Assembly: GCA_964393575.1 (NCBI GenBank) | Contig: CAYMUG010000001.1 | Span: forward strand, 39,803 to 78,332 | Direction of reading: 5' to 3' | DNA from: an uncultured Candidatus Saccharibacteria bacterium | GTDB lineage: Bacteria > Patescibacteriota > Minisyncoccia > Spechtbacterales > 2-12-FULL-38-22 | Length of the DNA stretch: 38,530 bases | Shown: positions 9,001 through 12,000 of the stretch, in pieces | How the letters are laid out: the number at the start of each line of letters is the position of its first letter | Numbering within the stretch: position 1 is the stretch's first letter | Made by a program: the position numbers

Positions 9001-12000
9001 TGTCAATTGTCAAATGTTTGCCTTATGGCAAGTCGACACTTAGCACGTTCAATAGCAATGCAAACCCTTTTTGAGTGGGATTTTTGGAATGAAGGCGGAG
9101 ATAAAACGGAAGAATTGAAGGAATTTATGAAAGACAATATTGAGGAGTTCGGCCCCGGCCTGGATGAAGAGGTCAAATTTATTGAGAAGCTTATAGACGG
9201 TGTCCTTGAACATATAGATAAGATTGATGCGATTATTGAAAAAACTGCGCCGGAATGGCCTATTGACCAAATTAACCTGGTAGACAGAAATGTTCTTCGG
9301 GTAGGTATATTCGAACTTCTTTGGGGGGAGAGAGACGAAGTGCCGCCAAAAGTTGCTATTAATGAGGCGATCGAACTTGCTAAAAACTTTGGAGGAGACA
9401 GTTCCGGTAAGTTCATAAACGGTGTGCTGGGAACTATTTACAGAGAAATAGGCGAACCCGGAAAAAACCAGAAAGCAAAAAAGCCGGAATCAGAAGATAA
9501 GAAAGAAGAGAAACAAGCCGGAAAATCCGACCAAGAAAAACAAAACCAATAATGACGATAACAATAACTATGACAGTAACAAAGAATCATTCATAGCGAT
9601 TGTTATGGTCATTGTTGCGAATGCAACATGAAAGATTTTTCAAAATTAGAAAATTCTCTAAAAATAAAATTTAATAACAAAGACCTGTTAAAACAGGCAT
9701 TCATCCACCGCTCTTATTTAAACGAACATCCGGGTATAAAGCTGGACAACAACGAACGCCTTGAATTTTTGGGAGATGCGGTTTTGGAGTTATCAGTAAC
9801 CAAATACTTATTTAACAACTACGAGGAACCTGAAGGAGAGTTAACCAGTTGGCGTGCTGCTCTTGTTAATACCAAAATGCTCTCTCAAGTCGCGCGAGGC
9901 CTTGGTTTTAATGAGTATTTACTCCTTTCAAAAGGAGAAGAAAAAGATTCTTCTCATAGGGCAAGGCAATTTATTTTAGCTGATACTCTTGAAGCGTTTA
10001 TTGGTGCATTATATCAGGACCAGGGATATGAGGCAGCAGAAAAGTTTATACACGATCATATCTTAAAAGAATTACCCCGGGTTTTGGAACAGAAGCTATT
10101 TCGTGATCCGAAAAGTTTATTTCAGGAGAAGGCTCAGGAAAAAGAGGGAGTTACTCCTACTTATAAAGTGTTAAATGAAAGCGGCCCCGACCATAACAGG
10201 ATTTTTGAAATAGGTGTTTATCTGGAGGATGGACTTGCGGCAAAAGGAAAAGGTGCAAGTAAGCAGGAAGCTCAGGAGGAAGCCGCGCGTGCAGCTCTTG
10301 AGAAAAAAGGATGGATTTGACATTTGCTTTGTATTAAGGTAAAACTTACAAGTATATACGGCAGCGATTCTGCTACGCCTGACGTGGCAGATAGATACTA
10401 CATAATATATGCTAAAAATAAGATTAAAAAGAATAGGCAGTAGAAATAATCCGAGTTTTCGTATAGTTGTTGCTGAAAACACAGCACCGCCTCAGGGGCG
10501 GTATATTGATAATGTAGGATTTTATCATCCTACATTAAAGCAGATTGATTTGAATAAAGAAAAGATTCAGCATTGGCTATCTAATGGCGCACAACCCACG
10601 ACAACGGTTCATAATATTTTAGTTAACCAGGAACTTATAAAGGGCGAAAAAGTACGAGCTCACTCATCCCGAAAAAGAAAAGAGGAAGAAGAGGACTCTT
10701 CTTCGGCAACTCACTCTGAAGAAAGTAAAGAATCCGGAGAAACAAGCGAAGAAAGCACGGAAACAGAAAGCGAAAACCAGGGAGAGGTAGAAAACGAAAA
10801 AACTGAAGGAGGAAATAACGAAGAAAAGACAAGTGAAAATGAAGGCGATGGCGATAATTCCCAAGCGGATGTCCAAGAAAAAACGGGCGAACAAGATGAA
10901 GAAGAAGCTACTCAAGAAAAAACCGATGAAGGTGAAGCAAATTCTCAAGAATCTGAAGATAATTCCGCAGAAACACAAGGAGAGAAAGAAGACAACTCCG
11001 GAGAGCCGCAAGAAAAATCCGGGGAATAAAATCCGGGGTTGACATTGCGCTAAATAATATTAAAATAGAGTATAACAAGAAATCCCCAATTCGCTTAAAA
11101 AGCGAAATCAGAATGGCGGGATTGAAAGGTCGGTAGATAATATTTATTTCTTTATAAATTAATACAAGGTAGAAAGTATGGCATCCTATAAAGATCAAGA
11201 ATTTCTTGAATACGTTGTAAAAGCTTTGGTCGATCATCCGGACGATGTAGAGGTAGAGCGCAACGTGGACGAAATGGGGGTTCTTCTTAACCTCAAGGTT
11301 AACCCTGAAGATATGTCTCAAATTATCGGCAAGCAGGGTTCTACTGCGCGCGCCATTCGTTCTCTTTTGAGAATTGTAGGCCTTAAAAATAACGCGCGAG
11401 TTAATTTGAAGATTGAAGAACCCGAAGGAGGAAAGACAAGTGGATCATCTGATTCCGGATCTTCTTCTAATGACGTTGAAGAAGCGGTAGGTGATCTTGA
11501 ATAAATTTCCTGCTTCATATATCTCAGAAAATAGCCCTCACTTCGGGGGCTGTTTTCTATTGCGGGGTTAGATATAATGAAAATAGTATAGTAATGCGCT
11601 TCGTTCGCAACAAAATTATGAAATTCGATATATTAACAATCTTCCCTGAAATGTTCAGCTGCTATTTTGAAAGCAGTATGATTAAAAAAGCCCGGGATGA
11701 GGGCCTGATTGAAGTGAATGTTTACAACTTACGTGATTGGGCTCCAGATAAGCATAAAGTAACTGACGACCAGGCATTCGGCGGCATAAGCGGGATGGTT
11801 ATGAAAGTAGAACCGATTTACTACGCGGTAGAAGAATTGAAGAAACAAAAGCCTGCCCCGCACCGTAGTTCCGGTGAAGCCGGAACTTCGGGTGCGGGGT
11901 CAAAGGTTATTTTACTTTCTGCTAAAGGAGAAATTTTAAAACAGAAAAAAGTACGACAACTTGGTGAAGAAAAGCATATTATTTTAATTGCAGGACACTA

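Follow-up and report, generated by a model that had tools for sequence, protein, structure and literature searches.

A hairpin carried in frame in trmD of a Spechtbacterales bacterium and its probable derivation from dispersed repeats

The window analyzed here, a stretch of 38,530 nt from an uncultured bacterium (assembly GCA_964393575.1, contig CAYMUG010000001.1, positions 39,803-78,332, forward strand), contains a trmD gene that carries a 44-nt GC-rich palindrome within its reading frame. Comparison of this gene with its homologues, and of the palindrome with the other hairpins of the genome, points to dispersed hairpin-repeat DNA that came to lie, in frame, within a surface loop of TrmD that is disordered and hypervariable, and we regard this as the probable explanation. 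Hairpin-repeat DNA of the genome itself would have settled within the loop, presumably by transposition-like or recombinational copying, and would have replaced part of an ancestral Lys/Arg-rich loop with a net gain of 12 codons. The insert would be translated as a Gly/Ser/Ala/Pro-rich linker and may persist as a neutral or nearly neutral passenger. The source genome (G000), that of a tiny soil bacterium, comprises 778 kb in 52 contigs and is 92% complete; its closest TrmD homologues carry source names that lead to Candidatus Spechtbacteria/Spechtbacterales, in the Patescibacteria (candidate phyla radiation, CPR).

The palindrome and the TrmD loop

The gene, the insert and its parts were located in the window as follows (strand given where one was assigned).

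11618-12316, + strand: coding sequence of trmD, 232 aa with the ATG at 11618 as start (240 aa from an in-frame upstream ATG at 11594); Pfam and PDB matches
11852-11902, + strand: 51-nt segment PAPHRSSGEAGTSGAGS, without counterpart in the Lys/Arg-rich loop of relatives; DNA alignment, loop comparison and translation
11856-11899: nested palindrome, 44 nt, 70.5% GC; sequence and fold
11856-11864: family-1 outer clamp, left arm, CCCCGCACC; 17 oriented copies, flank R-CARGY, control 0
11865-11890: inner hairpin GTA-GTTCCGG-TGAAG-CCGGAAC-TTCG, family-2-like; GTTCCG..CGGAAC with 10 copies, control 0
11891-11899: family-1 outer clamp, right arm, GGTGCGGGG; genome pattern searches

The palindrome, CCCCGCACCGTAGTTCCGGTGAAGCCGGAACTTCGGGTGCGGGG, is nested, with the layout CCCCGCACC-GTA-GTTCCGG-TGAAG-CCGGAAC-TTCG-GGTGCGGGG, and reads APHRSSGEAGTSGAG in the trmD frame. 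Its GC content of 70.5% compares with 43% in the rest of trmD and 40.9% in the whole genome. As RNA, it was predicted to fold at -41.5 kcal/mol on the + strand (z -6.6) and at -35.7 kcal/mol on the - strand (z -6.3), and none of 200 dinucleotide shuffles matched its folding energy on either strand. The 51-mer at 11852-11902 is open in two of its three sense frames.

The palindrome is present in independently assembled reads. The Logan assembly of the source run contained a 9042-nt contig (depth ~50) that was identical over window positions 11500-12400, palindrome included. A second study (X3) supplied a contig of 190 nt that spans 11802-11991, and hence the whole palindrome, with 0 differences. 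The palindrome is genuine DNA, and the misassembly that the preliminary description of this stretch had named as a possible refutation is excluded by these two contigs.

Apart from the palindrome, the sequence is that of an intact, full-length TrmD, the tRNA m1G37 methyltransferase of the SPOUT class. The open reading frame (ORF) is uninterrupted and matched Pfam PF01746 (tRNA_m1G_MT) over residues 31-238 (E 2.7e-47), and TrmD structures in the PDB matched it over the full length at up to E 4.9e-57. The 60 closest homologues (61-74% identity) share 59 invariant columns, and the product keeps every one of them.

The loop, in contrast, is longer than in other TrmDs. In HMMER alignments with the TrmD of S. 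aureus and other solved TrmDs, there was one 15-residue gap, which fell exactly at PAPHRSSGEAGTSGA. The segment from EPIY to LSAKG runs to 40 aa here, 12 aa more than the usual 28 aa, which 38 of the 60 closest homologues have, and where the closest relatives read K-K-[KVRTRKR]-K, the corresponding stretch here is K-K-[QKPAPHRSSGEAGTSGAGS]-K. When the DNA was aligned with the four closest trmD genes, a single clean 36-nt gap was found between well-aligned flanks. The net gain is thus 36 nt (12 codons), though 51 nt (11852-11902) are unmatched in the relatives, which implies that the event added the palindrome and removed ~15 nt of an ancestral Lys/Arg-coding tract, or that the deletion came later. 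By these alignments, the insert is lineage-specific. In an AlphaFold2 model built from a homologue alignment (mean predicted local distance difference test score, pLDDT, 79), a helix at residues 64-76 is followed by a coil at 77-95 (pLDDT ~50) and a strand at 96-106 that runs into the LSAKG motif; on this model, the insert would form a disordered loop. The preliminary description had reported a 44-nt GC-rich palindrome in frame in trmD, with a shorter loop in other TrmDs, and had proposed ortholog alignment and structure modeling to see whether it is a lineage-specific indel in a surface loop. The position, composition, ORF and Pfam match bear out the palindrome in frame, and the alignments and the low-confidence coil of the model agree with the remainder.

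The same loop varies in length across the Spechtbacterales. Twenty-two of the 60 homologues deviate from the usual loop length, and their inserts are unrelated in sequence. The loop of P0047/L031 contains a 47-nt GC palindrome, TCCCATTAGAG..GGGCGCC-TCG-GGCGCCC..CTCTAACGGGA (-30.4 kcal/mol, z -4.6), that of P0022/L034 has three copies of a 10-nt tandem unit, and that of P0033/L007 has a 14-nt tandem duplication. The inserts of P0017/L032 and P0059/L033 share SPS(A/T)(R/Q)LRA and are unstructured. The insert of P0026/L035, AACCCCGCA..GGGGCAAG, has a fold that is not significant (z -0.4); it resembles a decayed family-1 copy in the opposite orientation and another codon phase, a resemblance that we treat as a lead only. 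A 10-nt match to family-1 right arms in the loop of P0009, AAAAGGTGCG, was dropped, as other relatives are without it and it lies in the wrong place for the junction. The unrelated inserts indicate that the loop tolerates insertions. It may also attract them, the DNA there being an A-rich Lys tract. The preliminary description had held that loops of the same length without palindromic DNA in orthologs from distant bacteria would speak against an insertion; long loops without a palindrome do occur in the more distant relatives L007 and L034, as part of the hypervariability of the loop, and the four closest genes are without extra length. Elsewhere in the TrmDs of Spechtbacterales relatives, P0050 has a GIY-YIG nuclease domain (Pfam, residues 59-126) ahead of its matched TrmD part (144-327), L011 (G006:C24:980-1921) has an in-frame stretch of ~94 additional residues after TrmD residue 51 and before residue 52, and L010 (G009) has ~24 extra residues near TrmD residue 212.

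Dispersed repeat families in the source genome

The two modules of the palindrome belong with repeats found elsewhere in the genome. The clamp arms CCCCGCACC and GGTGCGGGG occur 17 and 20 times, respectively, vs 0.7 expected. A search for hairpins of the form CCCGCACC..GGTGCGGG returned 12 in this genome, 0-3 per genome in 40 relatives, and 0 with the reversed-pattern control. With relaxed stems and asymmetric flanks (5' ..GAAC, 3' R-CARGY), 17 oriented copies of this family 1 were retrieved, again with a control of 0. The trmD copy fits the pattern on the minus strand as TTTGAC-CCCGCACC...GGTGCGGG-G-CAGGC. On that strand, the left clamp arm forms the 3' end of the hairpin, GGTGCGGGG, followed by the family-1 3' flank CAGGC, and an exact 14-mer in the flank, GCCTGCCCCGCACC, is common to the trmD copy and the family-1 copy at C18:12906. 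By the polarity that these asymmetric flanks define, the trmD copy runs antisense to its host gene. It is the only family-1 copy within genuine coding sequence. Twelve other copies lie 12-13 nt upstream of start codons, in a conserved leader cassette, and several of the remaining ones are long palindromes, two of which immediately precede TTGACA -35 boxes.

The inner hairpin, GTTCCGG-TGAAG-CCGGAAC-TTCG, resembles a second family, GTTCCGRC-loop-GYCGGAAC, which is often followed by TTCG (10 copies, control 0). Copies of family 2 typically lie ~9 nt 3' of a stop codon. An exact 11-mer, CCGTAGTTCCG, is common to the trmD palindrome and the hairpin in the 16S leader, which has the same nested plan. 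The related hairpins within the window are listed below (C1 positions in brackets; strand where assigned).

12607-12650: 16S-leader hairpin, nested in the same way, with GCCCGCC/GGCGGGC outside and GTAG-TTCCGAC..GTCGGGA inside (minus strand); sequence and shared 11-mer
16620-16667 (to 16673 with the box): family-1 long palindrome abutting a TTGACA -35 box upstream of 23S; CCCCGCACC...GGTGCGGGG match
22673-22708 (to 22715 with the box): family-1 perfect 36-nt palindrome, one base before a TTGACA -35 box, upstream of a 1075-aa gene at 22843; CCCCGCACC...GGTGCGGGG match
32084-32116 (C1:71886-71918), + strand: copy of family 1 within a 5' leader, 12 nt ahead of the start codon; pattern search
32803-32823 (C1:72605-72625): family-2 copy in an intergenic spacer; pattern search

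As these matches suggest, the trmD insert is most likely a family-2-like hairpin nested in a family-1 clamp, derived from the repeats of the genome itself and not evolved in place. The preliminary description had matched the arms to the palindromes at 16620-16667, 22673-22708 and 12607-12650 and had called for a genome-wide search. The first two share CCCCGCACC...GGTGCGGGG and the third shares the 11-mer, and the search showed that parts of the palindrome are common to dispersed intergenic hairpin families. That account can be refined in one respect: by sequence, the element combines two repeat modules, one nested in the other, and no other locus is copied in it as a whole.

Further details of these families were recorded. 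The leader cassette has the form UUUUGUGA-[small hairpin]-GAAC-CCCGCACC..GGUGCGGG-ACAAGCAAAA-AUG and lies downstream of a TGnTATAGT-like extended -10 box, with no Shine-Dalgarno sequence visible; besides the copy at 32084-32116, there are 11 other sites (e.g., C21:4344-4373 and C18:634-663). A solo family-1 arm, TGCGGGGTT, is located at 11561-11578, beside a TATAAT box ~40 nt upstream of the trmD start, and may be the remnant of a promoter-abutting hairpin. Three metagenome matches to the composite junction were rejected as relatives and taken as chance or convergence. They come from unrelated GC-rich organisms in which a hairpin like those of repetitive extragenic palindromic (REP) sequences, GTAG-TTCCGGC-TAA-GCCGGAAC, follows a TAG stop. 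At L041:9816-9842 and L042:911-937, from a high-GC organism, this hairpin stands right after the stop, the classic GTAG-tagged REP layout; the trmD element shares with it 15 nt of the left side (GCACCGTAGTTCCGG) and, over 7 nt, the right arm CCGGAAC.

GC-rich hairpins are mainly intergenic in this genome (110 of 162), and about one-fifth lie inside called ORFs, while 88% of the genome is called as ORF. ORFs of at least 600 nt contain 15 GC-rich hairpins of at least 10 bp, vs 1-2 after codon shuffling. Two further dispersed hairpin families have one in-frame coding copy each, in housekeeping genes. The GGCAACGGGGGT..ACCCCCGTTGCC family (11 copies) has one in TsaD, and the GCCGTATC..GATACGGC family (10 copies) has one in an RluA-type pseudouridine synthase, its other copies lying beside tRNAs and a small GIY-YIG gene. 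RNA genes are affected as well: an insertion of 148 nt (12856-13003) extends the 16S gene at a hairpin loop near model position 188, and this insertion carries a copy of a third palindrome family, CCTGCCTGCCGGCAGGCAGG (palindrome CGCACCTGCCTGCCGGCAGGCAGGTGCG, core CTGCCGGCAG), with 21 sites in the genome.

Several side observations concern the same genes. The TsaD gene (G000 C14:11818-13047) contains palindromes at 12383-12423 and 12775-12795, Lys/Ser-rich inserts and, in frame, a copy of the dispersed family GGCAACGGGGGTTTAACCCCCGTTGCC. A double-hairpin family, GACAGGGCGCCGTATCGGATGATACGGCG (10 copies), has an in-frame copy at C46:1530-1549 in an RluA-type pseudouridine synthase; further copies neighbour tRNA genes or stand immediately upstream of a gene for a small GIY-YIG nuclease (~100 aa), and this gene is flanked by a ~50-nt direct repeat. 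Small GIY-YIG proteins are encoded at C23:6946-7248 and C13:1215-1523. The 23S gene (16870-20333) measures 3464 nt against a model of 2925 nt and hence has insertions too. Many conserved proteins contain Lys/Ser/Asn/Gln-rich inserts that resemble translated A-rich intergenic repeats, such as SQISNYKLQTNSNNQNSK in LeuRS.

Origin and role of the insert

If repeat DNA did settle in the trmD loop, its survival would be explained by a length that is a multiple of three, the absence of a stop in frame, and the tolerance of the loop to insertions. Several results weigh against this account. The whole 44-nt composite was absent elsewhere in the genome in a blastn-short search, in which only the modules alone recurred, so that no donor copy was identified, and its junction had 0 matches in public genome contigs. 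The flanks of the palindrome, CAAAAG and CAAAGG, form an imperfect repeat only, without a clear target-site duplication. No Y1/RAYT (REP-associated tyrosine) transposase was found in a six-frame PF01797 search of the 92%-complete genome, in which control genomes gave matches. A closer relative with an empty site was not found either: the best TrmD among 5.8 billion proteins was 71-74% identical, and none of 40 relatives' genomes held a closer one. Because the nearest relatives are this distant, the insert boundaries (36, 45 or 51 nt) are not fixable. Finally, several basic residues of the ancestral loop were lost with the insert, which tempers the case for strict neutrality.

A broader proposal would place the trmD insert in an undescribed class of tiny modular hairpin elements in the Spechtbacterales. 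Such elements would be GC clamps that bear asymmetric flanks and may nest in each other, would spread without a recognizable transposase, and would colonize 5' leaders, promoter edges, rRNA genes and, in frame, loops of RNA-modification enzymes such as TrmD, TsaD and an RluA-type synthase. The A-rich Lys loop of TrmD would be a preferred landing site that several lineages acquired inserts in independently, and a host factor (e.g., the small GIY-YIG nucleases beside one hairpin family) might recognize extruded hairpins and drive their copying. We put this forward as a tentative possibility, on balance doubtful.

The hairpin could instead be kept in trmD as an RNA or DNA signal: an mRNA stabilizer or processing site that separates rpsP-khpA from trmD expression, a translational brake on trmD, or a site bound by some factor with a preference for the CCCCGCACC clamp. 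The fold is very stable (-41.5 kcal/mol), the sequence was identical in an independent sample, and other family-1 copies occupy stereotyped, apparently functional spots, 12-13 nt before starts or before TTGACA -35 boxes. A brake would also be plausible given the low expression of TrmD in E. coli, where it is expressed far below its ribosomal-protein neighbours. However, the trmD copy is antisense by the family-1 flanks, lacks the leader and promoter modules of the other copies, and stands at a site where no terminator or promoter was predicted, all of which argues for a passenger and not a signal. The closest relatives do without the hairpin, and the inserts of other lineages in the same loop are unrelated and in several cases unstructured, which indicates tolerance rather than function. 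On balance, we consider a retained signal unlikely. An Rfam search over the window gave, beyond rRNAs and tRNAs, no match at the gathering threshold.

A local origin would involve template switching during replication, that is, an inverted duplication of neighbouring sequence, with the likeness to other hairpins arising from later gene conversion or a shared mutational bias. The same genome offers candidate products of this process. In TsaD, the left arm of a perfect 41-nt palindrome encodes the conserved HMEGHLAAN, and the right arm is its inverted copy. In LeuRS, the left arm of a 43-nt palindrome (G000 C16:4787-4829) encodes the conserved GRSxGxxV block, and the right arm is again an inverted copy; it opens a ~12-aa insert before VFTTRPDT. 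The LeuRS palindrome looks like a template-switch inverted duplication, and the two cases suggest that template switching also generates palindromes in this genome. The roughly tenfold excess of GC-rich hairpins in long ORFs over the codon-shuffle expectation fits this origin, as does the failure to find a donor copy or a target duplication for the trmD insert. In trmD, however, neither arm of the palindrome resembles the ancestral Lys/Arg-rich loop DNA, and both modules recur with their asymmetric, non-palindromic flanks at 17 and 10 other sites. Since local duplication cannot yield two dispersed modules with asymmetric flanks, this origin appears improbable for the trmD insert. An artefact of assembly or a chimera, or a palindrome that arose by chance where the loop is simply variable, has a negligible likelihood: loop length does vary across the order and chimeric joins are possible in metagenome-assembled genomes, but the palindrome was identical in the independent assembly and in the contig of the other study, no shuffle folded as well, and the repeat-family control matched zero.

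Relation to known palindromic elements

If dispersed-repeat DNA is indeed what the trmD loop contains, short palindromic repeats that enter essential genes and are translated along with them, best known from Rickettsia, would operate also in the ultra-small CPR/Patescibacteria. Such inserts may explain part of the unexplained loop insertions in conserved proteins and rRNAs of CPR bacteria. They would inflate apparent protein divergence and can pass for assembly errors, and they would point to insertion-tolerant positions in enzymes, among them TrmD, which in other bacteria is an antibiotic target. Should a dedicated spreading mechanism exist, it would represent a new, very small kind of mobile DNA. 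A literature search for such elements in CPR bacteria found no description.

In size and composition, the nearest analogy is with the GC clusters and double-hairpin elements (DHEs) of fungal mitochondria. These are GC-rich hairpins of 30-50 nt in AT-rich small genomes, with intergenic, rRNA and in-frame copies, as in the GC-cluster polymorphism of yeast var1. DHEs were reportedly described in Allomyces by Paquin et al. in 2000. Neither GC clusters nor DHEs are known to have a transposase of their own. The host, however, is an organelle, and no likeness in sequence is known; the comparison is offered as an analogy.

[quoted passage not shown] The trmD element may be likened to them in its inverted ends, present as the 9-bp clamp. 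It differs in that neither a clear target-site duplication nor a parent insertion sequence was found (the search for the latter covered PF01797), and its 44 nt are far below the typical MITE length.

REP sequences are GC-rich imperfect palindromes of 20-40 nt that are mostly extragenic and often stand just 3' of coding regions, with some lying wholly within ORFs, in several phyla (PMC3733652). The size is comparable, and families 1 (17 copies) and 2 (10 copies) are likewise nearly all intergenic, which would make the trmD copy an intragenic exception. REPs bear a conserved tetranucleotide, GTAG or CGTC, at one end. Here GTAG precedes the inner hairpin in the trmD and 16S-leader copies only (2 of ~11 family-2-like hairpins) and is missing from the ends of family 1, and where present it lies inside the outer clamp and not at the end of the element. 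In contrast to REPs, no RAYT was found with PF01797, and the copy numbers are in the tens, whereas those of REPs are in the hundreds. The trmD element thus resembles intragenic REPs in behavior and is not counted among them.

Rickettsia palindromic elements (RPEs), to which the preliminary description had likened the insert, are in-frame palindromic repeats in housekeeping genes, ~100-150 bp long, with a conserved encoded peptide and confined to Rickettsia (Ogata et al. 2000/2002, summarized in PMC10969869). Membership in this group did not hold up: the trmD element measures 44-51 nt, is a two-module composite and occurs in the Patescibacteria, and no other coding copy defines a peptide family, so that it is set apart from RPEs by size, host and peptide. 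The likeness in behavior, an in-frame palindromic repeat in a tolerant loop, did hold. In both cases, palindromic repeats are dispersed through a small, reduced genome, with in-frame copies in unrelated housekeeping genes at sites that the fold tolerates, and RNA genes also carry copies.

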